Assembly (NCBI GenBank): GCA_963422645.2
Contig: CAXXVO010000002.1
Coordinates: 172,745-236,744 of the forward strand
Direction of reading: 5' to 3'
Source: Alphaproteobacteria bacterium
GTDB lineage: Bacteria; Pseudomonadota; Alphaproteobacteria; UBA828
DNA length: 64,000 nt
In this document: positions 6,563 to 60,869 of the stretch, in pieces
Position numbering within the stretch: position 1 is the first letter of the stretch
Layout: each line of letters starts with the position of its first letter
Notes under the pieces: generated by a model
Told to the model about the DNA's origin: nothing
Seen by the model: the letters and a program-made list of their open reading frames with translations, nothing else
The model's database searches: none
Made by a program: the position numbers and the translations under genes

Positions 6563-7768
6563 GTAACTGCCCAGGTCGTCTGATTTGTCATTTTGGGCCA
6601 GTGGATTGAGGCGTTTCTCGTTCGGAGTTGGTGGAAAGGGCTTGACGGGAATTTCGGGAAATGACTCAACAACGACATGAGCAATCCCGAGTCGCCGCGC
6701 GGCCCTTCGACGGGAGCAGCGCCCGAAACGCCCGCGCAGAAGATCGCCCGCCTGGAGGAGGAGAACGCCCGGCTTCGGGAGGAAAATGCCTGGCTTCGGC
6801 AGCAGAACGCGCGGCTGGAAGAGCAAGTCGCGCGTCTCGTCGAGCGCATCGAGGAGTTGGAGCGCCGTCTCGGCCTCAACAGCGGCAACAGCGGCAAGCC
6901 GCCTTCGAGCGATGGGCTGAGGAAGCCGAATTCGAAGCGGCGAACCCGAAGCCTGCGCGGCAAATCGGGCCGCAAGCCCGGTGGCCAGCCCGGCCACAAG
7001 GGCAAGACGCTGCGCCGCGCCGATCACCCGGATCGGGTGAAGGATCACGTCCCGGCTTCCTGCAAGGGATGCGGTTCGCCGCTTTCGGACGCGGCCAGGG
7101 CGGGAACGCCCGTCGCCCGCCAGGTGTTCGATCTGCCCGAGCCGAGCCCCCTGGAGGTGACCGAGCACCGGGCGCATGCCAAGTGCTGCGGGCATTGCGG
7201 GACGGTGACCCGGGCGGCGTTCCCCGACGGGGTGTCGGCGCCGGTGCAGTACGGCCCGCGCATTGCCGGGGTGGCGGTCTACCTTCAGCACGCTCACTTC
7301 CTGCCGGAGGATCGGCTGTCGCAGGTGATGGCCGAGCTCTTCGGCGCGCCGGTGACGGCTGCGACGTTGGCGACGATGAGCGAGAGGGCGGCCGAGCGGC
7401 TTGCGGGACGCGGCCTTGCACATACAGGACCTGGCGGCGGGCACGGCGCGGGTGAAACACATGGACGAGACCGGCTTGCGGATCGGCGGTCAGACGCAGT
7501 GGCTTCATGTGATCTGCACGCCGCTGCTGGCGGCGTACCGGGTCAGCGGCAAGCGCGGCGCCCTGCTCTCGGGTGTCTCCGGCATCGTCGTGCACGATCA
7601 CTGGAAGCCGTACTTCGCGATGGAAGGGGTGGAGCACGGCCTGTGCAACGCCCATCACCTGCGGGAGTTGCAGGCGCTGGTGGACATCGAAGGGGAGGCT
7701 TGGGCCCGGCGGATGCAGCAGCTCCTGCGCCGAGCCAATCGCGCCGCCCGCATCGCGCTGGACAAGGA
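6563..7768 (+). mobile_element. IS66-A (tnpC-only, ISBst12-like organisation), 3' truncated and frameshifted
   Basis: Begins GTAACTGCCCAGG; near-identical to 51439-53326; extra T near 7401; cut by an element X end at 7769. Confidence 0.9.
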
Positions 7769-15219: not shown

Positions 15220-15387
15220 AATTCGTTCATTGCTTGTAACTACCCAGGTACCCCGCCGCCAGTTCTGAGTGCGTGCTGATGTTGCTTGCCGTCGGTGCCG
15301 TTTCGCCGTCGGCGCGTCGTTGATCCCCGCTTGACTGTATAGGTTCTCTCGCCTATGGGTTGCACTCTCGCATGAGAGGAGCAGCCG

Positions 15388-16056
15388 GTGGGGTATTTCG
15401 GGTCGAAGGCGACGACCGGTCTGAGCCAGGCGCTGATTGCGCTGATGCCGCCGCACTCTGTCTATATCGAGAGCCATCTTGGGGGCGGGGCGCTGATGAA
15501 GCGCAAGCCTGCGGCCATGCGCTCGATCGGGATCGACCGCGACGAGCGGGCGCTTGAGGCCTTTGGCTGCGACTACCCGGTGGAGTTGGTGCCCGGCTGC
15601 GCCCATTCCTTCCTGGCCTCGTTCCCGTTTCTGGGCCCGGAGCTGGTCTACAGCGATCCGCCCTATCTGCACGCGACCCGGCGTTCGTCGCAGCGCTACC
15701 GCTTCGAGTACGAGGAGGCCGACCACGTCGCGCTCCTCGAACTGCTCAAGGGTCTGCCCTGCCAGGTGATGGTCTCGGGCCACCCGTCTGCGCTCTATGA
15801 CGAGCTGCTGGCGGGCTGGCGCCGGCTGGCGCTGCAGGTGACGACCCAGGCCCAGGTGCGGACCGAGGTCGTGTGGTTCAACTTCGCGCCTGACCGGGTG
15901 CACTGGGCGAGCTTCGCCGGCCGGAACTTCACCGAGCGCCAGTGCATCAAGCGCAAGGCGGCCAACTGGGGCCGGCGCTACGAGGCCATGCCGGCGGGCG
16001 AACGCCTGGCGGTGCTGGCCGCGATCATGGCCGTCGAGGCCGACGAGGGTTCGTGA
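15388..16056 (+). CDS. Dam-like (D12-class) DNA adenine methyltransferase within IS66
   Basis: YFGSK (motif X-like), YIESHLGGGA (motif I), GID, YSDPPY (motif IV), VMVSG, RTEVVWFNF. Confidence 0.82.
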   Translation: MGYFGSKATTGLSQALIALMPPHSVYIESHLGGGALMKRKPAAMRSIGIDRDERALEAFGCDYPVELVPGCAHSFLASFPFLGPELVYSDPPYLHATRRSSQRYRFEYEEADHVALLELLKGLPCQVMVSGHPSALYDELLAGWRRLALQVTTQAQVRTEVVWFNFAPDRVHWASFAGRNFTERQCIKRKAANWGRRYEAMPAGERLAVLAAIMAVEADEGS

Positions 16057-17332
16057 CAGTGTCGCGCTGGCACGAGGACCTCGCTGCCCACGACGAGGCC
16101 TTCGCGTGCCTGCAGGACCTTTTCACCCCACAATCCTTCGCAATGACCGCCGTCAAAGCCATTCGGGAATGGGGCCAGAGGTTGCTGCGCCTGAGCGCTG
16201 AGCGCGGCCCTGGTCAAGGAGAACGACGCGCTGGAGCGGGAGAACGCCCGCTTGCGCGAGCGGATCGCCGAACTCGAGCGCAGCGCCGCGCTCGACAGCA
16301 CCACCAGCTCCAAGCCGCCGGCCAGCGACGGTCTGAAGAAGAAGAGCGGTGACCGGGAGAAGCGCACCCGGAGCCAGCGCGGCAAGTCCGACAGGCCCAG
16401 TGGCGGCCAGCCGGGCCACAAGGGAACTACCCTGGAGCGGACCGCGACGCCCGACCATGTCGTCGATCATGATCCGTCCGCCTGTGAGGGCTGCGGCGCG
16501 CCGCTGTCGGACGCTGACCGTCACGGAGCCCCCGTCTGCCGGCAGGTCTTCGATGTGCCCGAGCCGCAGCCCCTCGAGGTCACCGAACATCGCGGCCATC
16601 GTTGCCTCTGCGCTGCCTGCGGCACCGTGACGACAGCCGTCTTCCCGAACGGCGTGAGCGCACCGGTCCAATACGGGCCGCGCATCACCGCGTGGGTGAC
16701 CTACCTGCTGCACGCTCAGTTCATTCCCGAGAAGCGGGTCGCCGAGGTCATGAGCGACCTCTTCGCGGTCAAGCTCTCAACAGCCACCATCGTCGCCATG
16801 GGAAGGCGCACCGCCCGGCGCTTCGAGGGCTTCCTCGATCGCCTCGCGGAGATCATCCGCACCGCAGCCCCAGTCAAACACCTCGACGAGACCGGCATCC
16901 GCATCGCCGCCCGGACCCATTGGCTCCATGTGCTGTGCACCCCGTTGCTCACCATCCTGCGCGTCGCCACCGGGCGCAGCCACATCGACGAGAAGCTCAA
17001 CGGCATCGTCATCCATGACGACTACGCCACCTACTTCGCTCTCGAGGGCGTGCGCCACGGGGCCTGCAACGCCCATCACCTGCGCGAGCTCCAAGCCCTC
17101 ATCGAGATCGAGAAGGAAGACTGGGCAACGAGCACGCACCGGCTCCTCATCCGTGCCAACAGAGCCGCCCGCTTCGCCCACAAGAACGACCGCGACGTGC
17201 CCGCCTCACTGGTGGCCCGCATCTCGCGAGCCTGGGACCGCATCCTCGAACGTGCCATCGCCTCTCACGAAGAAATGCCACCGCTCCAGACCGGAAAGCG
17301 CGGACGACAAAAGCGCCGCATCGGTCACAACC
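16053..17332 (+). pseudogene. IS66 TnpC transposase, frameshifted and truncated
   Basis: GTG start overlaps the MTase TGA; SSKPPASD, GGQPGH, Zn-finger CxxC, HLDETG, CNAHHLREL; 7-bp duplication at 16191-16204. Confidence 0.85.
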
Positions 17333-17421
17333 TCAGACTTCCTGACCTCTGCTGATTTTAGGTGACACGAGCCGCGCGGATTCCGAGGCCCCGTCGATGT
17401 CGTAGACTATGCGCAGACGGG
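17333..17421 (-). mobile_element. 89-bp terminal stub of element X, cut by IS21
   Basis: Identical to the element X terminus; followed by a TGTTG IS21-like end. Confidence 0.88.
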
Positions 17422-17598
17422 TGTTGTTAAGCGGTAACTGCCCAGGTACCCCCTCTCTCTTATGGAACAAGCCAGTTCCTTTTGCGTCAACGCCCCCACG
17501 CCGCGGGGGTGCCTACTCTCTTGAGCGCGAGAGGATGATGAACGCCGCGTCGCGAACAAGATGAGAGGACAGCGATACTCAGGATGAGCCGGAGAAGT

Positions 17599-19137
17599 TC
17601 AGGAGCGCAGTATAGGGATCAGCTGCATCGGTTCCGGGTGCGCCAGGATTTGCAGGATGTTCCAGCCTTGCTTTCGAGCGGTGACGATGACGCTGCGCAT
17701 TCCGGCGAAGTTGCAGGCGCCTTGCAGGGAGCGGAAGCCGCCTGAGATCTTCTCATGCACTTTGTTCATACGGATGTCACGCTCCGCCTCGTTATTCGTG
17801 AACGGCGTGCGCAGGTCGGTGAGGAAGCGCAGGCAGCCCTCCTTATGCTTTTGAAGGCGGCGCGCGAGGTTGTGGCCGATGCGGCGTTTCTTTCGCCCTC
17901 GCTTTGCGATCTGGAGCGGCGGTTGGGCCTCATGGAAGGCGATGGCTTCTTCGAGGATACGGTCCCATGCCCTTGAGATGCGGGCCACCAGGGAGGCGGG
18001 GACTTGACGGTCTTTCTCACGGGCGAAGCGGGCGGCCCTGCGCGCGCGCTGAAGCAGGCGGTGCATGCTCGCCGCCCATTCCTCCTTCTCGATGTCGATC
18101 AGGGCCTGGAGTTCGCGCAGGTGATGTGCGTTGCAGGCGCCGTGGCGGACGCCCTTGATGGTGAAGTAGGGGGCGAAGTCGTCGTGGACGAGGATGCCTT
18201 TCAGGTTCTTTTCGACATCGCCGCGTCCCTCGCCGATGCGCAGGACGGTGAGCAACGGGGTGCACAGCACATGGAGCCAGCGGGTACGGGCGGCGATACG
18301 CAGGCCGGTCTCGTCGAGGTGCTTGACCGGCGCCTGCGTGCGGATCAGATCGGCGACATGGTCGAGGAAGCCCTCGAAGCGCTGCGCTGTGCGCCGGCCC
18401 ATGGCGGCGATCGTGGCAGTGGAGATGGACACCGCGAAGATGTCGCTCATGAGTTCGGCCAGACGCTTCTCGGGCACGAACTGGGCGTACAGCAGGTAAC
18501 TCACCCAAGCGGTGATGCGAGGGCCGTACTGGACCGGGGCGGTGACGCCCGGCGGGAAGGCGGCTCGTGTCAGCGTGCCGCATGCGCCGCAGAGGCAGCG
18601 ATGGGCGCGGTGTTCGGTGACCTCGAGAGGCTGCGGCTCGGGTACGTCGAAGACCTGCCGACAGGCGGGCGCGCCTTGCCGGTCGGCGTCCGAGAGCTCG
18701 ACGCCACAGCCGGAACAGGTGGAGGGGTGGTGATCGACGACACGGTCCGGGCTGTCGCTCCGCGCGAGGGTGGTTCCCTTGTGGCCGGGCTGGCCGCCAC
18801 TGGGCCCGCCGGACTTTCCGCGCTGGCTTTGGGTGCGCCTCTGGGCTCCGCTTTTCTTCTTGAGCCCGTCGCTGGCGGGGGGCTTGCTGCTTGTGGTGCT
18901 GTTGAGGGCCGCGCTGCGCTCGAGTTCGGCGATGCGCTCGCGCAGGGCCGCGTTCTCCTGCTCGAGTGCGGCATTTTCCCGGGCGAGCGCGGTGGCTGAT
19001 CGCAGCAGCCCCTGCCCCCATTCCCGGACGGCAACGACGACAGTGGTTGCGAGGGATGATGGCTCGAGAAGCTCCTTCAGGCAGCAGAAGGCCTCGTTAC
19101 GGGCGGCGAGGTCTTCGTGCCAGTGCGACACCGTCAC
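17599..19137 (-). CDS. IS66 TnpC DDE transposase
   Basis: HLDETG, HDDF, CNAHHLREL, FTNNEAERDIR, KISGGFRS; GTG start coupled to the MTase stop. Confidence 0.9.
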   Translation of the reverse strand: MTVSHWHEDLAARNEAFCCLKELLEPSSLATTVVVAVREWGQGLLRSATALARENAALEQENAALRERIAELERSAALNSTTSSKPPASDGLKKKSGAQRRTQSQRGKSGGPSGGQPGHKGTTLARSDSPDRVVDHHPSTCSGCGVELSDADRQGAPACRQVFDVPEPQPLEVTEHRAHRCLCGACGTLTRAAFPPGVTAPVQYGPRITAWVSYLLYAQFVPEKRLAELMSDIFAVSISTATIAAMGRRTAQRFEGFLDHVADLIRTQAPVKHLDETGLRIAARTRWLHVLCTPLLTVLRIGEGRGDVEKNLKGILVHDDFAPYFTIKGVRHGACNAHHLRELQALIDIEKEEWAASMHRLLQRARRAARFAREKDRQVPASLVARISRAWDRILEEAIAFHEAQPPLQIAKRGRKKRRIGHNLARRLQKHKEGCLRFLTDLRTPFTNNEAERDIRMNKVHEKISGGFRSLQGACNFAGMRSVIVTARKQGWNILQILAHPEPMQLIPILRS

Positions 19138-19799
19138 GTGTCTTCGGCCTCGACGGCCATCATGGCGGCGAGCACGGCGAGGCGTTCGCCCGGCGGCAAG
19201 GCCTGGTAGCGCCGGCCCCAGTTGGCTGCCTTGCGCTTGATGCGCTGGCGGTCGGTGAAGTTCCGGCCTGCGTGGCTGGCCCAATGCATCCGGTCGGGGG
19301 CGTAGTTGAACCAGACGACCTCGGTTCGCACCAGACCCTGGGTCGTGACCTGCAGCGCCAGCCGGCGCCATCCCGCCAGCACCTCGTCATAGAGCGCCGA
19401 CGGATGGCCCGAGATCATGACCTGGCAGGGCAGAGCCTTGAGCAGCGCGAGAAGCGCGACGTGGCCGGCCTCCTCGTACTCGAAGCGGTAGCGCTGCGCC
19501 GAGCGGCGGGTCGCGTGCAGATAGGGCGGATCGCTGTAAACCAGCTCCGGGCCCAGGAACGGGAACGAGGCCAGGAAGTCATGGGCACAGCCGTGAACCA
19601 GATCGACCGGGTAGTCGCAGACGAAGGCCTCGAGCGCCTGCGCATCGCGGTCGATGCCGATCGAACGCACGGCCGGCGGCTTGCGCTTCATCAGCGCCCC
19701 GCCCCCAAGGTGGCTTTCGATGTAGACGGAGTGCGGCGGCATCAGCGCAATCAGCGCTTGGCACAGACCTGCTGTCGCCTTCGAGCCGAAATACCCCAT
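19134..19799 (-). CDS. Dam-like DNA adenine methyltransferase within IS66
   Basis: YFGSK, ESHLGGGA, DPPY. Confidence 0.82.
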   Translation of the reverse strand: MGYFGSKATAGLCQALIALMPPHSVYIESHLGGGALMKRKPPAVRSIGIDRDAQALEAFVCDYPVDLVHGCAHDFLASFPFLGPELVYSDPPYLHATRRSAQRYRFEYEEAGHVALLALLKALPCQVMISGHPSALYDEVLAGWRRLALQVTTQGLVRTEVVWFNYAPDRMHWASHAGRNFTDRQRIKRKAANWGRRYQALPPGERLAVLAAMMAVEAEDT

Positions 19800-20105
19800 G
19801 GACCGCTCCCGTCACGCGAGAGAGCAGTCCATAGTCCCGCAACTCTATGAGGTCAAGAACCAATCGCGGTGGCAGAACCAGGCCGCGGCCGCCGCCATAA
19901 TCACCGTCCTCAACTCAGGATTGGGGTACCTGGGTAGTTACGTTAAGCGTGGAAAAGTGACCCCCTATTGGGGCGTTTCCCGTCAAGCTCGATTTTCAAT
20001 AGATCATTGTCGCGCCAATCAGTTGTTTTCCTGGCGTGGTGTAGGGGCTCCTTCGGCCTGGCTATGAGGCGCCGGGTGAGGCGCGGAGGAGGTTGCCGGT
20101 GTCAG

Positions 20106-24580: not shown

Positions 24581-25766
24581 GCCGGGGTGGCGGTCTACCT
24601 TCAGCACGCTCACTTCCTGCCGGAGGATCGGCTGTCGCAGGTGATGGCCGAGCTCTTCGGCGCGCCGGTGACGGCTGCGACGTTGGCGACGATGAGCGAG
24701 AGGGCGGCCGAGCGGCTGCGGGACGCGGCCTTGCACATACAGGACCTGGCGGCGGGCACGGCGCGGGTGAAACACATGGACGAGACCGGCTTGCGGATCG
24801 GCGGTCAGACGCAGTGGCTTCATGTGATCTGCACGCCGCTGCTGGCGGCGTACCGGGTCAGCGGCAAGCGCGGCGCCCTGCTCTCGGGTGTCTCCGGCAT
24901 CGTCGTGCACGATCACTGGAAGCCGTACTTCGCGATGGAAGGGGTGGAGCACGGCCTGTGCAACGCCCATCACCTGCGGGAGTTGCAGGCGCTGGTGGAC
25001 ATCGAAGGGGAGGCTTGGGCCCGGCGGATGCAGCAGCTCCTGCGCCGAGCCAATCGCGCCGCCCGCATCGCGCTGGACAAGGATATCGCCGTTCCGGCGA
25101 GGCTTGTGGCGCTGATCGAGCGCCGATACGACGAGATCATCGCCGATGCGCTGGCCTTTCACGAGAGCCAACCACCGTTCTCGCCTGGCAAGAGGAAGAA
25201 GCGCCGGAAGCGAAGGATCGGTCACAATCTGGCCTTGAGGCTGCGCGACCACAAATGCGCGGTGCTCCGGTTCCTGATCGACCTCGAGGTCGGGTTCACG
25301 AACAACGAGGCCGAGCGCGACCTTCGGATGATGAAGCTGCGCCAGAAGATCTCCGGGGGCTTCCGGTCCGCGCAGGGGGCCGAGAACTTCGCCATCCTGC
25401 GCAGCGTCATCACCACCGCCAGAAAGCAGGGCTGGAATATCATCGAAGCCCTGACCAGCCCATCGGATCGGCTCATCGCCACCGTCAAGTGCGCGTAAGC
25501 TCACCTGGCACGGGTTCTCCAACAGCGGAGCCATTCTCATAAACGATCATGGTCGACGCCGTGCTGGACCACCCCATAGAATGAAAATCGGTGCCCGTCG
25601 CGCGGGCGGACTTCGGGCCACATCGGGGTAGCTTACCGGTCGCAGTCCGCAAGAGGGGCATCGTGAGCTGTGAAACCCGGCGACCCCAGAGGAGCACACG
25701 GGCGTCGCGTGGGTAGCGTTGTGCCGAATCCCAGAGAATTTTCACAGCAAGAACCTGGGCAGTTAC
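24581..25766 (+). mobile_element. IS66-A, 3' portion only
   Basis: Matches the 3' part of the other IS66-A copies; ends CCTGGGCAGTTAC. Confidence 0.9.
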
Positions 25767-51376: not shown

Positions 51377-51552
51377 GAAAGCGGGCCGGCACCGGCGGTC
51401 GACCGCAGCATCACCCTTTGCCGCACCTCGCTTAAATGGTAACTGCCCAGGTCGTCTGATTTGTCATTTTGGGCCAGTGGATTGAGGCGTTTCTCGTTCG
51501 GAGTTGGTGGAAAGGGCTTGACGGGAATTTCGGGAAATGACTCAACAACGAC

Positions 51553-53058
51553 ATGAGCAATCCCGAGTCGCCGCGCGGCCCTTCGACGGGAGCAGCGCCC
51601 GAAACGCCCGCGCAGAAGATCGCCCGCCTGGAGGAGGAGAACGCCCGGCTTCGGGAGGAAAATGCCTGGCTTCGGCAGCAGAACGCGCGGCTGGAAGAGC
51701 AAGTCGCGCGTCTCGTCGAGCGCATCGAGGAGTTGGAGCGCCGTCTCGGCCTCAACAGCGGCAACAGCGGCAAGCCGCCTTCGAGCGATGGGCTGAGGAA
51801 GCCGAATTCGAAGCGGCGAACCCGAAGCCTGCGCGGCAAATCGGGCCGCAAGCCCGGTGGCCAGCCCGGCCACAAGGGCAAGACGCTGCGCCGCGCCGAT
51901 CACCCGGATCGGGTGAAGGATCACGTCCCGGCTTCCTGCAAGGGATGCGGTTCGCCGCTTTCGGACGCGGCCAGGGCGGGAACGCCCGTCGCCCGCCAGG
52001 TGTTCGATCTGCCCGAGCCGAGCCCCCTGGAGGTGACCGAGCACCGGGCGCATGCCAAGTGCTGCGGGCATTGCGGGACGGTGACCCGGGCGGCGTTCCC
52101 CGACGGGGTGTCGGCGCCGGTGCAGTACGGCCCGCGCATTGCCGGGGTGGCGGTCTACCTTCAGCACGCTCACTTCCTGCCGGAGGATCGGCTGTCGCAG
52201 GTGATGGCCGAGCTCTTCGGCGCGCCGGTGACGGCTGCGACGTTGGCGACGATGAGCGAGAGGGCGGCCGAGCGGCTGCGGGACGCGGCCTTGCACATAC
52301 AGGACCTGGCGGCGGGCACGGCGCGGGTGAAACACATGGACGAGACCGGCTTGCGGATCGGCGGTCAGACGCAGTGGCTTCATGTGATCTGCACGCCGCT
52401 GCTGGCGGCGTACCGGGTCAGCGGCAAGCGCGGCGCCCTGCTCTCGGGTGTCTCCGGCATCGTCGTGCACGATCACTGGAAGCCGTACTTCGCGATGGAA
52501 GGGGTGGAGCACGGCCTGTGCAACGCCCATCACCTGCGGGAGTTGCAGGCGCTGGTGGACATCGAAGGGGAGGCTTGGGCCCGGCGGATGCAGCAGCTCC
52601 TGCGCCGAGCCAATCGCGCCGCCCGCATCGCGCTGGACAAGGATATCGCCGTTCCGGCGAGGCTTGTGGCGCTGATCGAGCGCCGATACGACGAGATCAT
52701 CGCCGATGCGCTGGCCTTTCACGAGAGCCAACCACCGTTCTCGCCTGGCAAGAGGAAGAAGCGCCGGAAGCGAAGGATCGGTCACAATCCGGCCTTGAGG
52801 CTGCGCGACCACAAATGCGCGGTGCTCCGGTTCCTGATCGACCTCGAGGTCGGGTTCACGAACAACGAGGCCGAGCGCGACCTTCGGATGATGAAGCTGC
52901 GCCAGAAGATCTCCGGGGGCTTCCGGTCCGCGCAGGGGGCCGAGAACTTCGCCATCCTGCGCAGCGTCATCACCACCGCCAGAAAGCAGGGCTGGAATAT
53001 CATCGAAGCCCTGACCAGCCCATCGGATCGGCTCATCGCCACCGTCAAGTGCGCGTAA
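51553..53058 (+). CDS. IS66 TnpC transposase (full length)
   Basis: Coiled coil, GKPPSSD, Zn finger, HMDETG, TNNEAERDLR; carries HNP where the other copies have HNL. Confidence 0.92.
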   Translation: MSNPESPRGPSTGAAPETPAQKIARLEEENARLREENAWLRQQNARLEEQVARLVERIEELERRLGLNSGNSGKPPSSDGLRKPNSKRRTRSLRGKSGRKPGGQPGHKGKTLRRADHPDRVKDHVPASCKGCGSPLSDAARAGTPVARQVFDLPEPSPLEVTEHRAHAKCCGHCGTVTRAAFPDGVSAPVQYGPRIAGVAVYLQHAHFLPEDRLSQVMAELFGAPVTAATLATMSERAAERLRDAALHIQDLAAGTARVKHMDETGLRIGGQTQWLHVICTPLLAAYRVSGKRGALLSGVSGIVVHDHWKPYFAMEGVEHGLCNAHHLRELQALVDIEGEAWARRMQQLLRRANRAARIALDKDIAVPARLVALIERRYDEIIADALAFHESQPPFSPGKRKKRRKRRIGHNPALRLRDHKCAVLRFLIDLEVGFTNNEAERDLRMMKLRQKISGGFRSAQGAENFAILRSVITTARKQGWNIIEALTSPSDRLIATVKCA

Positions 53059-53100
53059 GCTCACCTGGCACGGGTTCTCCAACAGCGGAGCCATTCTCAT

Positions 53101-53310
53101 AAACGATCATGGTCGACGCCGTGCTGGACCACCCCATAGAATGAAAATCGGTGCCCGTCGCGCGGGCGGACTTCGGGCCACATCGGGGTAGCTTACCGGT
53201 CGCAGTCCGCAAGAGGGGCATCGTGAGCTGTGAAACCCGGCGACCCCAGAGGAGCACACGGGCGTCGCGTGGGTAGCGTTGTGCCGAATCCCAGAGAATT
53301 TTCACAGCAA
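53101..53310 (+). mobile_element. Transposase-less mini-IS110 embedded in IS66-A (also at 25541-25750 and 60644-60853)
   Basis: Similar to both non-coding ends of the IS110 at 40238-42007 (see findings). Confidence 0.65.
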
Positions 53311-53334
53311 GAACCTGGGCAGTTACCTTAAATG

Positions 53335-53389
53335 GTAACTGCCCAGGTCGTCTGATTTGTCATTTTGGGCCAGTGGATTGAGGCGTTTC
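53335..53389 (+). mobile_element. 55-bp IS66-A left-end stub fused to IS66-M
   Basis: Identical to 51439-51493. Confidence 0.9.
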
Positions 53390-53531
53390 GTAACTACCCA
53401 GGTACCCCAATCCTGAGTTGAGGACGGTGATTATGGCGGCGGCCGCGGCCTGGTTCTGCCACCGCGATTGGTTCTTGACCTCATAGAGTTGCGGGACTAT
53501 GGACTGCTCTCTCGCGTGACGGGAGCGGTCC

Positions 53532-54197
53532 ATGGGGTATTTCGGCTCGAAGGCGACAGCAGGTCTGTGCCAAGCGCTGATTGCGCTGATGCCGCCGCAC
53601 TCCGTCTACATCGAAAGCCACCTTGGGGGCGGGGCGCTGATGAAGCGCAAGCCGCCGGCCGTGCGTTCGATCGGCATCGACCGCGATGCGCAGGCGCTCG
53701 AGGCCTTCGTCTGCGACTACCCGGTCGATCTGGTTCACGGCTGTGCCCATGACTTCCTGGCCTCGTTCCCGTTCCTGGGCCCGGAGCTGGTTTACAGCGA
53801 TCCGCCCTATCTGCACGCGACCCGCCGCTCGGCGCAGCGCTACCGCTTCGAGTACGAGGAGGCCGGCCACGTCGCGCTTCTCGCGCTGCTCAAGGCTCTG
53901 CCCTGCCAGGTCATGATCTCGGGCCATCCGTCGGCGCTCTATGACGAGGTGCTGGCGGGATGGCGCCGGCTGGCGCTGCAGGTCACGACCCAGGGTCTGG
54001 TGCGAACCGAGGTCGTCTGGTTCAACTACGCCCCCGACCGGATGCATTGGGCCAGCCACGCAGGCCGGAACTTCACCGACCGCCAGCGCATCAAGCGCAA
54101 GGCAGCCAACTGGGGCCGGCGCTACCAGGCCTTGCCGCCGGGCGAACGCCTCGCCGTGCTCGCCGCCATGATGGCCGTCGAGGCCGAAGACACGTGA
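53532..54197 (+). CDS. Dam-like DNA adenine methyltransferase within IS66
   Basis: Protein identical to 19134-19799; DPPY. Confidence 0.82.
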   Translation: MGYFGSKATAGLCQALIALMPPHSVYIESHLGGGALMKRKPPAVRSIGIDRDAQALEAFVCDYPVDLVHGCAHDFLASFPFLGPELVYSDPPYLHATRRSAQRYRFEYEEAGHVALLALLKALPCQVMISGHPSALYDEVLAGWRRLALQVTTQGLVRTEVVWFNYAPDRMHWASHAGRNFTDRQRIKRKAANWGRRYQALPPGERLAVLAAMMAVEAEDT

Positions 54198-55732
54198 CGG
54201 TGTCGCACTGGCACGAAGACCTCGCCGCCCGTAACGAGGCCTTCTGCTGCCTGAAGGAGCTTCTCGAGCCATCATCCCTCGCAACCACTGTCGTCGTTGC
54301 CGTCCGGGAATGGGGGCAGGGGCTGCTGCGATCAGCCACCGCGCTCGCCCGGGAAAATGCCGCACTCGAGCAGGAGAACGCGGCCCTGCGCGAGCGCATC
54401 GCCGAACTCGAGCGCAGCGCGGCCCTCAACAGCACCACAAGCAGCAAGCCCCCCGCCAGCGACGGGCTCAAGAAGAAAAGCGGAGCCCAGAGGCGCACCC
54501 AAAGCCAGCGCGGAAAGTCCGGCGGGCCCAGTGGCGGCCAGCCCGGCCACAAGGGAACCACCCTCGCGCGGAGCGACAGCCCGGACCGTGTCGTCGATCA
54601 CCACCCCTCCACCTGTTCCGGCTGTGGCGTCGAGCTCTCGGACGCCGACCGGCAAGGCGCGCCCGCCTGTCGGCAGGTCTTCGACGTACCCGAGCCGCAG
54701 CCTCTCGAGGTCACCGAACACCGCGCCCATCGCTGCCTCTGCGGCGCATGCGGCACGCTGACACGAGCCGCCTTCCCGCCGGGCGTCACCGCCCCGGTCC
54801 AGTACGGCCCTCGCATCACCGCTTGGGTGAGTTACCTGCTGTACGCCCAGTTCGTGCCCGAGAAGCGTCTGGCCGAACTCATGAGCGACATCTTCGCGGT
54901 GTCCATCTCCACTGCCACGATCGCCGCCATGGGCCGGCGCACAGCGCAGCGCTTCGAGGGCTTCCTCGACCATGTCGCCGATCTGATCCGCACGCAGGCG
55001 CCGGTCAAGCACCTCGACGAGACCGGCCTGCGTATCGCCGCCCGTACCCGCTGGCTCCATGTGCTGTGCACCCCGTTGCTCACCGTCCTGCGCATCGGCG
55101 AGGGACGCGGCGATGTCGAAAAGAACCTGAAAGGCATCCTCGTCCACGACGACTTCGCCCCCTACTTCACCATCAAGGGCGTCCGCCACGGCGCCTGCAA
55201 CGCACATCACCTGCGCGAACTCCAGGCCCTGATCGACATCGAGAAGGAGGAATGGGCGGCGAGCATGCACCGCCTGCTTCAGCGCGCGCGCAGGGCCGCC
55301 CGCTTCGCCCGTGAGAAAGACCGTCAAGTCCCCGCCTCCCTGGTGGCCCGCATCTCAAGGGCATGGGACCGTATCCTCGAAGAAGCCATCGCCTTCCATG
55401 AGGCCCAACCGCCGCTCCAGATCGCAAAGCGAGGGCGAAAGAAACGCCGCATCGGCCACAACCTCGCGCGCCGCCTTCAAAAGCATAAGGAGGGCTGCCT
55501 GCGCTTCCTCACCGACCTGCGCACGCCGTTCACGAATAACGAGGCGGAGCGTGACATCCGTATGAACAAAGTGCATGAGAAGATCTCAGGCGGCTTCCGC
55601 TCCCTGCAAGGCGCCTGCAACTTCGCCGGAATGCGCAGCGTCATCGTCACCGCTCGAAAGCAAGGCTGGAACATCCTGCAAATCCTGGCGCACCCGGAAC
55701 CGATGCAGCTGATCCCTATACTGCGCTCCTGA
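54194..55732 (+). CDS. IS66 TnpC transposase
   Basis: GTGA overlap with the MTase; IS66 motifs intact. Confidence 0.9.
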   Translation: MTVSHWHEDLAARNEAFCCLKELLEPSSLATTVVVAVREWGQGLLRSATALARENAALEQENAALRERIAELERSAALNSTTSSKPPASDGLKKKSGAQRRTQSQRGKSGGPSGGQPGHKGTTLARSDSPDRVVDHHPSTCSGCGVELSDADRQGAPACRQVFDVPEPQPLEVTEHRAHRCLCGACGTLTRAAFPPGVTAPVQYGPRITAWVSYLLYAQFVPEKRLAELMSDIFAVSISTATIAAMGRRTAQRFEGFLDHVADLIRTQAPVKHLDETGLRIAARTRWLHVLCTPLLTVLRIGEGRGDVEKNLKGILVHDDFAPYFTIKGVRHGACNAHHLRELQALIDIEKEEWAASMHRLLQRARRAARFAREKDRQVPASLVARISRAWDRILEEAIAFHEAQPPLQIAKRGRKKRRIGHNLARRLQKHKEGCLRFLTDLRTPFTNNEAERDIRMNKVHEKISGGFRSLQGACNFAGMRSVIVTARKQGWNILQILAHPEPMQLIPILRS

Positions 55733-55898
55733 ACTTCTCCGGCTCATCCTGAGTATCGCTGTCCTCTCATCTTGTTCGCGACGCGGCGTTCATCATCCTC
55801 TCGCGCTCAAGAGAGTAGGCACCCCCGCGGCGTGGGGGCGTTGACGCAAAAGGAACTGGCTTGTTCCATAAGAGAGAGGGGGTACCTGGGCAGTTACC

Positions 55899-57377
55899 TT
55901 AAATGTACGCACGCAGTCGCTTGACACCGTCTGTGGAGACGCCGAGACCCTTCCGGGTGCGCCGCCACAGGATGTCCTCGGCGGTCCGGGCCCACTCGTG
56001 CTCGACCAGATACGCGACCTCCGCCTCGTAGAGCCCGGCCCCGAAGTGCTCGCCGAGGTCACCCAGGCTGCTTCGGCCGGCGAGCAGGGCATGAATCTCG
56101 GTGCCGTAGTGGCGGATGCAGTGACGGAGTAGCCGCTCCGGCATCCATGAGTAACGGGCGGCGCATTGCGCGGTGAAAGCGCCGATGTCTGCGTCGGGGA
56201 TGTCTCCACCGGGGAGAGGAGCGTCGGCCGTCCATCGCGATCCATTGATGCGGAGAGGCCCTGCCAGCATGTCCACCGCCCGCTCGGCAAGCCTGCGATG
56301 CGTCGTGAGCTTGCCGCCGTATACCGAGAGCATCGGCACCGGAGCCGGATCGAGGTGCAGCACGTAGTCGCGGGTGACCTCGCTCGCGTTCTCGGCCTGG
56401 TCGTCGAAGAGCGGACGGATGCCGGAGTACGTCCACACCACGTCGCCTGAGGTGACGGGGGTCTCGAAGTAGTCGTTGGCGGCGGCACAGATGTAGTCGA
56501 CTTCCTGGGGCGTGATCTCGACCCGACCGGGCGCGCCCTCGAACTCGACATCGGTCGTCCCCAGCAGGGTGTAGTCCTCCTCGTAGGGGATCGCGAACAG
56601 CACGCGGCCGTCGCCGGTCTGGAAGATGTAGGGATGAGCGTGGTCGAAGACCTTGCGCACCACGATGTGGCTCCCCTTGACCAGCCTGACCCTGTGCTTC
56701 GCCCCGGCGCCGCCGGCGAGCGAGCGCACTTGGCCGACCCATGGGCCGCTCGCGTTGACGACGCCCCGCGCCGTGACGGTGACGCGTTCGCCCGACTCCC
56801 GGTCGGCAAGGACCGCCGTCCAGTTCGAACCATCCGGCGCGAGCGAGACGCACGCGGTGCGGGTGCGGATCTCCGCACCCCTGGCGTGGGCGTCGCGGGC
56901 ATTCAGCACCACCAGCCGCGAATCCTGCACCCAGCAGTCCGAGTATTCGAAGGCCCGGCGATAGCGGCCCTGCAACGCGCGCCCGCTCGCGTGCCGGCCG
57001 AGGTTTATGCTCGCGCACGGCGGCAGCGGACCGCTCCTGCCGAGATGATCGTAGAGAAAGAGGCCCAACCGGATCATCCACCAGGGGCGGAGCCCGGCGT
57101 GATGCGGCAGCACGAAGCGCATCGGCCAGATGATGTGCGGGGCGTTACGCAGGAGCACCGCGCGCTCGCGCAGGGACTGGCGCACGAGTCTAAAGTCGCG
57201 ATGCTCCAGGTATCGCAGCCCGCCGTGGATCAGCTTGGTGCTGGCCGACGAGGTGTGCGCGGCCAGATCGTCCTGCTCGCAGAGCAGCACGTCGAGGCCG
57301 CGCCCCGCCGCGTCCCGGGCGATGCCGGTGCCGTTGATGCCGCCGCCGATGACGAGCAGGTCGACCGTGCGCGGCAC
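55899..57377 (-). CDS. glpD: Glycerol-3-phosphate dehydrogenase
   Basis: IGGGING, TSSASTKLIHGGLRYLE, VYGGKLTTHR, DILWRRT. Confidence 0.93.
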   Translation of the reverse strand: MPRTVDLLVIGGGINGTGIARDAAGRGLDVLLCEQDDLAAHTSSASTKLIHGGLRYLEHRDFRLVRQSLRERAVLLRNAPHIIWPMRFVLPHHAGLRPWWMIRLGLFLYDHLGRSGPLPPCASINLGRHASGRALQGRYRRAFEYSDCWVQDSRLVVLNARDAHARGAEIRTRTACVSLAPDGSNWTAVLADRESGERVTVTARGVVNASGPWVGQVRSLAGGAGAKHRVRLVKGSHIVVRKVFDHAHPYIFQTGDGRVLFAIPYEEDYTLLGTTDVEFEGAPGRVEITPQEVDYICAAANDYFETPVTSGDVVWTYSGIRPLFDDQAENASEVTRDYVLHLDPAPVPMLSVYGGKLTTHRRLAERAVDMLAGPLRINGSRWTADAPLPGGDIPDADIGAFTAQCAARYSWMPERLLRHCIRHYGTEIHALLAGRSSLGDLGEHFGAGLYEAEVAYLVEHEWARTAEDILWRRTRKGLGVSTDGVKRLRAYI

Positions 57378-58981: not shown

Positions 58982-60869
58982 GTAACTGCCCAGGTCGTCT
59001 GATTTGTCATTTTGGGCCAGTGGATTGAGGCGTTTCTCGTTCGGAGTTGGTGGAAAGGGCTTGACGGGAATTTCGGGAAATGACTCAACAACGACATGAG
59101 CAATCCCGAGTCGCCGCGCGGCCCTTCGACGGGAGCAGCGCCCGAAACGCCCGCGCAGAAGATCGCCCGCCTGGAGGAGGAGAACGCCCGGCTTCGGGAG
59201 GAAAATGCCTGGCTTCGGCAGTAGAACGCGCGGCTGGAAGAGCAAGTCGCGCGTCTCGTCGAGCGCATCGAGGAGTTGGAGCGCCGTCTCGGCCTCAACA
59301 GCGGCAACAGCGGCAAGCCGCCTTCGAGCGATGGGCTGAGGAAGCCGAATTCGAAGCGGCGAACCCGAAGCCTGCGCGGCAAATCGGGCCGCAAGCCCGG
59401 TGGCCAGCCCGGCCACAAGGGCAAGACGCTGCGCCGCGCCGATCACCCGGATCGGGTGAAGGATCACGTCCCGGCTTCCTGCAAGGGATGCGGTTCGCCG
59501 CTTTCGGACGCGGCCAGGGCGGGAACGCCCGTCGCCCGCCAGGTGTTCGATCTGCCCGAGCCGAGCCCCCTGGAGGTGACCGAGCACCGGGCGCATGCCA
59601 AGTGCTGCGGGCATTGCGGGACGGTGACCCGGGCGGCGTTCCCCGACGGGGTGTCGGCGCCGGTGCAGTACGGCCCGCGCATTGCCGGGGTGGCGGTCTA
59701 CCTTCAGCACGCTCACTTCCTGCCGGAGGATCGGCTGTCGCAGGTGATGGCCGAGCTCTTCGGCGCGCCGGTGACGGCTGCGACGTTGGCGACGATGAGC
59801 GAGAGGGCGGCCGAGCGGCTGCGGGACGCGGCCTTGCACATACAGGACCTGGCGGCGGGCACGGCGCGGGTGAAACACATGGACGAGACCGGCTTGCGGA
59901 TCGGCGGTCAGACGCAGTGGCTTCATGTGATCTGCACGCCGCTGCTGGCGGCGTACCGGGTCAGCGGCAAGCGCGGCGCCCTGCTCTCGGGTGTCTCCGG
60001 CATCGTCGTGCACGATCACTGGAAGCCGTACTTCGCGATGGAAGGGGTGGAGCACGGCCTGTGCAACGCCCATCACCTGCGGGAGTTGCAGGCGCTGGTG
60101 GACATCGAAGGGGAGGCTTGGGCCCGGCGGATGCAGCAGCTCCTGCGCCGAGCCAATCGCGCCGCCCGCATCGCGCTGGACAAGGATATCGCCGTTCCGG
60201 CGAGGCTTGTGGCGCTGATCGAGCGCCGATACGACGAGATCATCGCCGATGCGCTGGCCTTTCACGAGAGCCAACCACCGTTCTCGCCTGGCAAGAGGAA
60301 GAAGCGCCGGAAGCGAAGGATCGGTCACAATCTGGCCTTGAGGCTGCGCGACCACAAATGCGCGGTGCTCCGGTTCCTGATCGACCTCGAGGTCGGGTTC
60401 ACGAACAACGAGGCCGAGCGCGACCTTCGGATGATGAAGCTGCGCCAGAAGATCTCCGGGGGCTTCCGGTCCGCGCAGGGGGCCGAGAACTTCGCCATCC
60501 TGCGCAGCGTCATCACCACCGCCAGAAAGCAGGGCTGGAATATCATCGAAGCCCTGACCAGCCCATCGGATCGGCTCATCGCCACCGTCAAGTGCGCGTA
60601 AGCTCACCTGGCACGGGTTCTCCAACAGCGGAGCCATTCTCATAAACGATCATGGTCGACGCCGTGCTGGACCACCCCATAGAATGAAAATCGGTGCCCG
60701 TCGCGCGGGCGGACTTCGGGCCACATCGGGGTAGCTTACCGGTCGCAGTCCGCAAGAGGGGCATCGTGAGCTGTGAAACCCGGCGACCCCAGAGGAGCAC
60801 ACGGGCGTCGCGTGGGTAGCGTTGTGCCGAATCCCAGAGAATTTTCACAGCAAGAACCTGGGCAGTTAC
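58982..60869 (+). mobile_element. IS66-A complete (1888 bp)
   Basis: TIRs present; TSD ATTAACGA. Confidence 0.95.
59096..60601 (+). pseudogene. IS66 TnpC with a nonsense mutation
   Basis: CAG>TAG at 59222-59224 relative to the 51553 copy. Confidence 0.85.

Follow-up and report, generated by a model that had tools for sequence, protein, structure and literature searches.

Within a 64,000-nt stretch of an alphaproteobacterial genome (contig CAXXVO010000002.1; the whole stretch is referred to below as the window) we analysed a 2508-bp insertion sequence (IS), present as copies A and B, in which the gene preceding the transposase gene tnpC encodes a 221-aa protein with the fold of Dam-type DNA adenine methylases. 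The element is an active insertion sequence of the IS66 family, of the tnpC-only type. The explanation that we favour, with a confidence modestly above even, is that the first gene encodes a portable autorepressor with a methylase fold which controls the transposase operon. According to this proposal, a protein of the Upf31 family would bind the inverted repeat CATAG-N10-CTATG between the -35 and -10 hexamers of the only recognisable promoter of the element and would thereby hold down its own expression. Repression would extend to the transposase, the gene of which overlaps the regulator gene or lies close behind it in the same orientation, so that the first-gene protein would serve as a regulator of transposition. 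We infer the binding of the repeat by the IS protein, the single transcript over both genes and the limitation of transposition by repression, whereas autorepression and the lack of detectable methylation are carried over from the literature on Upf31, a homolog that is 45% identical to the IS protein.

The ends of copy B, GTAACTaCCCAGGTACCCC and the reverse-complemented GTAACTgCCCAGGTACCCC, matched at 18 of 19 positions, and both termini of copies A and B read GTAACT[A/G]CCCAGGTACCCC. The 13-mer GTAACTRCCCAGG was counted 12 times in the window, against an expectation of 0.04. Members of the IS66 family have termini starting with GTAA, produce an 8-bp target duplication and canonically carry tnpA, tnpB and tnpC, and the family also includes the tnpC-only ISBst12 group. 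The TnpC protein of the element matched PF03050 (4.4e-41, 141.6 bits, cut-off 23.1) and NF033517 (3.6e-86, 289.7 bits, cut-off 180), in addition to PF20042 (DUF6444) and PF13005 (zf-IS66). Its leader of 142 nt and trailer of 165 nt are too short for tnpA or tnpB; these canonical genes are absent upstream of tnpC, where the Dam-like open reading frame (ORF), which also carries a YFGSK motif, is the sole gene. TnpB_IS66 (PF05717) was matched three times in the whole genome, and none of the matches lies inside the 2508-bp IS. Judging by its gene content, the element resembles the tnpC-only IS66 group plus one added gene. A preliminary description of the window had reported a two-gene 2508-bp IS66 devoid of tnpA and tnpB, with its genes joined by a GTGA overlap and present in two copies. 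This anatomy was borne out, and the genome contains 36 full-length copies at ≥99.7% identity (BLASTN).

The idea of autorepression comes from Upf31, a protein of the IncP-1beta plasmids pBP136 and R751. The IS protein and pBP136 Upf31 are 45% identical over residues 1-218 (E 8e-68), the C-terminal domain included, and both consist of a Dam-like globular part with DPPY and a C-terminal helical domain. According to Elg et al. (10.1101/2024.02.05.579024; PMC11997246), Upf31 displayed no Dam activity in a dam- strain, and SMRT (single-molecule real-time) sequencing of a methylase-free strain expressing it gave no kinetic sign of modification (PMC11997246). The same work reports that Upf31 represses its own 68-bp promoter, the xylE activity falling from 4.76 to 0.09 units, that the proposed operator consists of inverted CAGCATCG repeats, that KorB is the proposed partner, and that the plasmid-destabilising phenotype of Upf31 requires its C-terminal domain, which is the predicted dimerisation domain (10.1101/2024.02.05.579024). 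When the IS protein was modelled from a diverse alignment in two copies, as a homodimer, the prediction reached a score of 0.20 against a mark of 0.42, which speaks neither for nor against a dimer. In the portion of the literature covered, Upf31 is the only experimentally studied homolog of the IS protein. Its genetic setting is different, since it lies between an OmpA-like gene (upf30.5) and a resolvase on a conjugative plasmid and has no transposase beside it. Elg et al. (Mol Biol Evol 2025, PMC11997246) sought homologs by BLASTN in PLSDB alone, and the accessible part of their published text mentions neither transposases nor insertion sequences.

The resemblance extends to the DNA upstream of the gene. 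To describe it, we compared 82 leaders, each comprising the 130 nt upstream of the gene, which derived from the two ISs of the window and from 80 of the 83 loci of other genomes considered below. TTGAC followed by TAG at +9 to +11 was present in 80 of the 82, and these contained 39 distinct 36-mers with the consensus TTGACAnCATAG-N10-CTATGGT. This corresponds to a -35 close to the consensus, followed after a 17-nt spacer by a -10 of the form TATGGT or TATGCT. ATAG at positions 8-11 was complementary to CTAT at positions 22-25 in 32 of the 39 distinct 36-mers, and the arms extended to 5 bp in 20 of them, with the caveat that the anchoring of the leaders itself demanded TAG. When one arm was slid by 1-3 nt either way (six offsets), complementarity was found in none of the 39. 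The ten nucleotides separating the arms vary freely, and two leaders (L077 and L090) have GTAG...CTAC, a compensatory change on both arms. In the Upf31 promoter, as in the IS leaders, TTGACA is immediately followed by a repeat arm, and the upstream region of pBP136, CTTGACAGCATCG, aligns in the same register with that of the IS leaders, CTTGACAnCATAG; the arm proposed for Upf31 is CAGCATCG, as compared with CATAG in the IS leaders. A homolog on a Xanthomonas plasmid is preceded by CAACATAG-N10-ACTATGCT. Upstream of the homolog on a Xanthomonas oryzae plasmid (L014, 3870-4000) GACTATGCTGCAGG occurs twice, which amounts to a duplicated downstream arm plus -10. A second inverted repeat was seen between the -10 and the start codon (53505-53531 in copy B, and in L061, L064, L070 and L089). 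It reads CTCTCGC...GAGAGGAG in clade A and TGATCCA...TGGATCA, containing GATC, in clade B (both clades are defined below), and it may form a hairpin in the 5' untranslated region or represent a further site.

The position of the gene in other genomes was evaluated in a scan of one genome per species, which yielded at least 374 candidate stretches, 350 of them with a relative. Eighty loci from about 37 assemblies, counted by record name, were kept, and three loci from a survey of the class brought the total to 83. The gene next downstream shares its orientation and encodes an IS66 transposase close to that of the window (clade A) at 39 loci, an IS66 transposase of a second type (clade B) at 34 and an IS701-family transposase at five; at two loci there was no room on the contig, and at three no transposase was found. 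The clade B TnpC is about 30% identical to that of clade A and is clearly an IS66 protein (PF03050, 7.6e-42; NF033517, 243.8 bits), and the IS701-family transposases matched NF049999 (5.6e-92 and 2e-89). At two of the three loci where no transposase was found, the ORF behind the gene matched DDE_Tnp_1 and DDE_Tnp_1_assoc weakly (24.2 bits against a cut-off of 23, and 28.8 against 32.3) and NCBIfam not at all or only through a weak IS4 match. There is also a fused gene call of a family member with PF13808, and the cassette probably stands upstream of IS4/ISAs1-like transposases too, as far as these domain matches can tell. The third of these loci (L097, G275:C1) has a 590-aa DruA-like ORF on the minus strand (3-1772) behind a member of the IS clade; this ORF contains the DruA domain of Druantia (PF14236, 1e-14, 54.9 bits, cut-off 27).

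The boundaries of these elements indicate which part they share. Three further element types, of 2461, 2238 and 2781 bp, likewise have the gene within the IS. The first is a sister of the 2508-bp IS, found in the same genome and described below. The 2238-bp type is the clade B element, which has perfect 15-bp ends and 8-bp duplications at four of four copies, and whose -35 begins directly after the left end. The 2781-bp type is the IS701-type element, which has the ends AGCTCGACTTTGTACATTT and a 3-bp TNA duplication, and whose nucleotide homology to the IS of the window is confined to IS positions 108-798, that is, to the promoter and the gene, at 83% identity. Between clades A and B the first-gene proteins are about 70% identical and the transposases about 30%. 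The junction of the two genes differs as well: clade A has kept the GTGA overlap and the TnpC N-terminus, the genes of clade B are 3-45 nt apart, and in the IS701 type about 110 nt lie between the stop codon and the start of the transposase ORF. In a quick maximum-likelihood tree of 74 rows, which included two plasmid rows and many long branches among the representatives, the IS-linked proteins formed one clade (Shimodaira-Hasegawa-like approximate likelihood ratio test, SH-aLRT, 99; 51 of the 74 rows, three representatives of unknown context among them). The IS701-linked proteins grouped with clade A (SH-aLRT 97), and the two plasmid proteins fell outside the IS clade. The protein is distributed patchily: matches at E ≤ 1e-10 were found in nine of the 401 genomes that represent the class, counting the present one, and in none of the three from its own family. 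From these comparisons, the promoter together with the gene behaves as a portable cassette which different transposon families would have recruited.

The tnpC frame is the -1 frame relative to the first gene and is open from 53960, and we therefore considered a programmed -1 frameshift that would fuse both ORFs as the normal product. This was rejected because the two genes are separated by gaps in the elements of clade B and of the IS701 type, because the TnpC N-terminus from the GTG codon (VTVSHWHEDL, kept in relatives) is conserved as protein, and because fused gene calls are rare (29 longer proteins, nearly all of them single-member clusters). The N-terminal extension of TnpC was also considered as a conserved partner of the first-gene protein and was set aside, since it is absent from the transposases of clade B and of the IS701 type.

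The more distant relatives present a different picture. A tblastn search retrieved 196 plasmid records, all of them below 60% identity and 134 conjugative, and the two plasmid contexts inspected each contained the homolog alone, with no adjoining transposase. There were 78 phage records at about 50% identity, those among the 10 listed being 33-35 kb long. These plasmid and phage relatives are annotated as DNA adenine methylase. The possibility raised in the preliminary description, that homologs might be found mostly unlinked to tnpC, is thus true of the distant relatives below 60% identity, given the two plasmid contexts inspected, and untrue of the IS clade.

By its profile scores the first-gene protein itself has only a borderline place among the D12 methylases. 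It scored 12.1 bits against PF02086, below the cut-off of 22, and 22.1 bits (E 1e-4) against TIGR00571, whose cut-off is 114.85, the latter match covering the DPPY region only; the protein of the sister IS matched TIGR00571 with E 8e-6. A sequence search of the PDB with the window protein returned nothing up to E = 10. The family is large, with 3706 proteins at E ≤ 1e-3 in 90% clusters and 5660 representative clusters in an exhaustive search, and PF02086 was matched at E ≤ 1e-3 by 44 of 53 diverse relatives (best 9.2e-15). An AlphaFold2 model built from a diverse alignment had a mean predicted local distance difference test (pLDDT) score of 92.3 and a predicted template modelling (pTM) score of 0.86. 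The PDB structures closest to it were those of E. coli Dam, DpnM and T4 Dam (4rtl, E 5e-7; 2dpm; 1yf3), with E around 1e-6 and template modelling (TM) scores of about 0.5. The suggestion made from the window alone, that the protein is a Dam-like methyltransferase, therefore holds for the fold, which the relatives and the nearest structures identify as D12, whereas the window protein itself stays below the Pfam threshold. In D12-class methyltransferases a target-recognition domain is inserted between the SAM-binding (S-adenosylmethionine-binding) and the catalytic halves. In the model, the path from motif I to DPPY is spanned by just two strand-helix units (residues 45-89), so that, on this prediction, the first-gene protein has no room there for a target-recognition insert. 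Among distant relatives with 40-45% identity, some (P0319, P0323 and P0326-P0328) are fused to an N-terminal PF23859 domain, making proteins of 475-679 aa.

The sequence of the protein has been strongly retained. D90, P91, P92, G32, H23, H113, G178 and R184 were invariant in 53 diverse sequences, and among close relatives DPPY was intact in 118 of 119, as it was in 111 of 117 among representative relatives of at least 200 aa. The ratio of nonsynonymous to synonymous substitution rates (dN/dS) between the two ISs of the genome was 0.23 for the first gene and 0.24 for tnpC, and by this measure the first gene is under purifying selection. At the same time dS was 0.315 for the first gene (IS positions 143-808) as against 0.625 for tnpC (805-2343), which suggests either that the cassette was exchanged more recently or that its DNA is under extra constraint. 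The view that gene and transposase form a conserved module, already expressed in the preliminary description, is supported by this selection, and the linkage to transposases is far stronger than could be seen from the window alone. These data bear on the possibility of neutral hitch-hiking, in which a gene of plasmid or phage origin would by chance have become lodged, on a single occasion, between tnpC and an IS end and would have been copied since then without a function. Insertion sequences with passenger genes exist, and IS-X, a related element of this genome which lacks the gene, shares the same ends and is still more abundant (66 full copies). We nevertheless consider a neutral origin very improbable, given the dN/dS of 0.23, an ORF that is intact in nearly all copies, a cassette that stands beside at least three unrelated transposase types with homology limited to the cassette, and a first-gene protein that is more conserved than the transposase.

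A second alternative is a cargo gene for an active orphan N6-adenine DNA methyltransferase, which would methylate the host genome or the carrier replicon, would in this way protect from restriction on transfer or rewrite the epigenetic state of the host, as suggested in the preliminary description, and would have no direct role in transposition. The D12/Dam fold with intact DPPY and SAM motifs is in accordance with such a role, as is the purifying selection on the gene, and the distant relatives reside on plasmids and phages, which are typical carriers of orphan methylases. We regard this alternative as unlikely. The only tested homolog, Upf31, showed neither Dam activity nor SMRT-detectable modification in the published tests, and in the model the target-recognition insert between motif I and DPPY is missing. 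In addition, a cargo methylase leaves unexplained both the conserved promoter repeat and the position of the gene, which is the first, in the same orientation and directly before transposases of several families. Like the hitch-hiker, it matches the linkage data poorly. The active Dam-like methylase assumed in the preliminary description is not supported in that form: the protein misses the Pfam threshold and has no target-recognition insert in the model, and Upf31 acts as an autorepressor without detectable methylation.

Several observations weigh against an autorepressor as the full explanation. The functional evidence derives from one homolog with 45% identity in the different setting of an IncP-1 plasmid. 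Independence is lacking for many of the 83 loci, which share assemblies. Since the -10 hexamer and the CTATG arm overlap, part of the arm conservation could be due to promoter function alone. The promoter of this genome's own IS is weak (TTGACC and TATGGA, an 8/12 match), and a promoter scanner run over the whole 2508-bp IS reported no sites. Because of the gap of about 110 nt in the IS701 type, co-transcription is assumed there and not evident. IS-X is more abundant than the two ISs that contain the cassette (66 full copies vs 36 and 14), so the cassette is dispensable for spread; an excess of IS-X would suit the role of a brake but proves nothing. What speaks most against a pure repressor is that the catalytic and SAM motifs are almost perfectly conserved over thousands of sequences, which is hard to reconcile with a protein that only binds DNA and suggests that the SAM/adenine pocket is used.

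This last point leads to a third alternative, in which the protein has a dual function, binding the operator and also methylating, or at least flipping, an adenine in the CATAG/CTATG arms, so that the methylation state would set promoter activity or binding; the timing of transposition by self-methylation, suggested in the preliminary description, belongs here. We hold it to be a minority possibility, and equally so its extension, that transposase expression would be tied to the passage of the replication fork in a self-contained analogue of the Dam control of IS10 and IS50. Dual function covers both the operator-like repeat and the near-invariant catalytic and SAM motifs; adenines are present in both arms, one of which overlaps the -10, and a long, rare operator site could presumably escape genome-wide SMRT motif calling. 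On the other hand, methylation has been seen for no family member, and the arms are short (4-5 bp), with a conservation that is partly due to the -10 hexamer. In its most explicit form, which we likewise think doubtful, the protein would flip an adenine of its own operator into the DPPY pocket and methylate it, making the cassette a portable transposition switch. If this were true, the reading of the IS promoter would depend on whether it is unmethylated, hemimethylated or fully methylated, and each element would carry a timer coupled to replication or to arrival in a new host, independent of the Dam or CcrM of the host. Such a cassette would then have been captured repeatedly by IS66, IS701 and IS4/ISAs1-like elements, while its relatives would serve the circuits of IncP-1 plasmids and P2-sized phages. 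The methylase-fold autorepressor of the transposase operon remains the reading that we prefer.

The genome that contains the window comprises 5.9 Mb in 23 contigs, with an estimated contamination of 8.48%, and the 221-aa protein has matches at 92 places in it. A perfect 8-bp duplication surrounds 22 of the 36 full 2508-bp copies, the octamers being mostly A+T-rich; that of copy A reads CGCTTAAC in IS orientation and is a clean 8 bp. Copy B has no simple target duplication at its flanks. The octamer CTTAAATG occurs at 51431-38, 53327-34 and 55898-905, and the order across 51431-55905 is CTTAAATG, IS-X (51439-53326), CTTAAATG, 55 bp of IS-X, copy B and CTTAAATG. A single insertion does not explain this tandem or nested layout, which may have arisen by recombination between copies or by transposition from a two-end junction. 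The flanks of the genome copies indicate that the end of IS-X is a recurrent target of the 2508-bp IS. The features of the window are collected in the table.

Features of the window, in the coordinates of the 64,000-nt stretch
Feature	Position	Strand	Remarks
Dead copy of the sister IS (complete form 2461 bp)	15236..17334	+	has kept the left end, the promoter and a 222-aa methylase-like ORF that is intact (15388-16056)
IS copy A, identical to copy B over 2508 bp	17434..19941	-	8-bp target duplication at 17426-17433 and 19942-19949
IS-X, tnpC-only IS66 relative, 1888 bp	51439..53326	+	same ends (GTAACTGCCCAGG)
First 55 bp of another IS-X copy, host site of copy B	53335..53389	+	same flank beside another copy in the genome
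IS copy B, complete IS66-family element, 2508 bp, methylase-like gene and tnpC	53390..55897	+	100% identity to 17434-19941
Left terminal inverted repeat, GTAACTACCCAGGTACCCC	53390..53408	+	18/19 positions shared with the right end
Promoter-like block with inverted repeat, proposed operator	53475..53503	+	TTGACC -35 (53475-80), 17-nt spacer, TATGGA -10 (53498-503)
Repeat arms in the promoter block	CATAG 53482-86, CTATG 53497-501	+	
Upf31-like Dam-fold (D12-type) protein, 221 aa	53532..54197	+	DPPY 90-93, SAM motif ESHLGGGA 28-35, C-terminal helical hairpin 181-220
TnpC, IS66-family DDE transposase, 512 aa	54194..55732	+	starts at a GTG overlapping the TGA with which the 221-aa gene stops
Right terminal inverted repeat, minus-strand reading GTAACTGCCCAGGTACCCC	55879..55897	-	

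The ends of the variant copies were fixed by pairwise BLAST. The sister IS has the same 19-bp left end as the 2508-bp IS, with an unrelated leader and trailer, and the stretch running from the promoter through tnpC is 82% identical in the two. Fourteen full-length copies of it were found in the genome, and a duplication was present at 10 of the 20 copies examined, some of which were truncated. The window copy corresponds to positions 1-2092 of the sister IS at 99.6% identity, is cut at 2092 and contains a 7-bp insertion which frameshifts tnpC. What had been described at first as a diverged variant is accordingly a separate 2461-bp IS, with an unrelated leader and an intact methyltransferase-like ORF as claimed, whereas its representative in the window is dead. 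The TnpC of IS-X is 60% identical to that of copy B and lacks the first ~50 aa; IS-X has no methylase-like gene, and its leader contains no CATAG/CTATG block. A second copy of IS-X in the window lies at 58982-60869, and two more IS66-type ends (GTAACTGCCCAGG) were seen at 6563-6575 (+) and 25754-25766 (-). Together with the 36 and 14 copies of the other two elements, the 66 of IS-X amount to more than 110 intact related elements in 5.9 Mb.

Insertion sequences have few accessory genes, most of which are not understood, tnpA and tnpB of IS66 being the standing example, and the cassette described here offers a concrete and testable accessory function. It would be a promoter-plus-regulator unit that is more conserved than its transposases and is exchanged between unrelated IS families. 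The IS setting would also provide a natural context in which self-repression by Upf31 makes sense, and other genes annotated as DNA adenine methylase beside transposases may likewise encode regulators. With about 50 copies of gene and operator, the genome analysed here is a good substrate for the methylation question. The Upf31 family itself, located mostly on IncP-1beta plasmids according to PMC11997246, grows to thousands of proteins.

Among the pieces that are already known are the IS66 family with its tnpC-only forms, the folds of the Dam family, Upf31 as an autorepressor and regulators encoded by insertion sequences. A literature search, which did not cover ISfinder, revealed no Upf31-like or Dam-fold first gene in IS66 or IS701 elements or before probable IS4/ISAs1-like transposases, and no shared promoter and repeat, which agrees with the remark in the preliminary description that no account of this arrangement was known to its author. 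The element is a regular member of the IS66 family in its PF03050 and NF033517 scores above the cut-offs, its 8-bp duplications and its GTAA ends; the canonical group differs in possessing tnpA and tnpB, in place of which a Dam-fold gene with its own promoter stands upstream of tnpC. A regulatory role has often been supposed for the canonical accessory proteins TnpA and TnpB. With E. coli Dam, T4 Dam and DpnM the IS protein shares DPPY, the G-x-G SAM motif and a Rossmann-type fold. It is shorter than the Dam-class enzymes (221 aa vs ~260-280 aa), misses the Pfam gathering score, has no helical or hairpin target-recognition insert in the model and possesses an extra C-terminal helical hairpin. 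The OrfA and InsA proteins of other insertion sequences are known regulators of transposition: IS1 InsA and IS3/IS911 OrfA, like the Tn5 inhibitor and the Dam control of IS10 and IS50, keep transposase expression low. In comparison with InsA, OrfA and the Tn5 inhibitor, the cassette described here would follow the same functional logic with an unrelated fold, and it spans unrelated transposase families.

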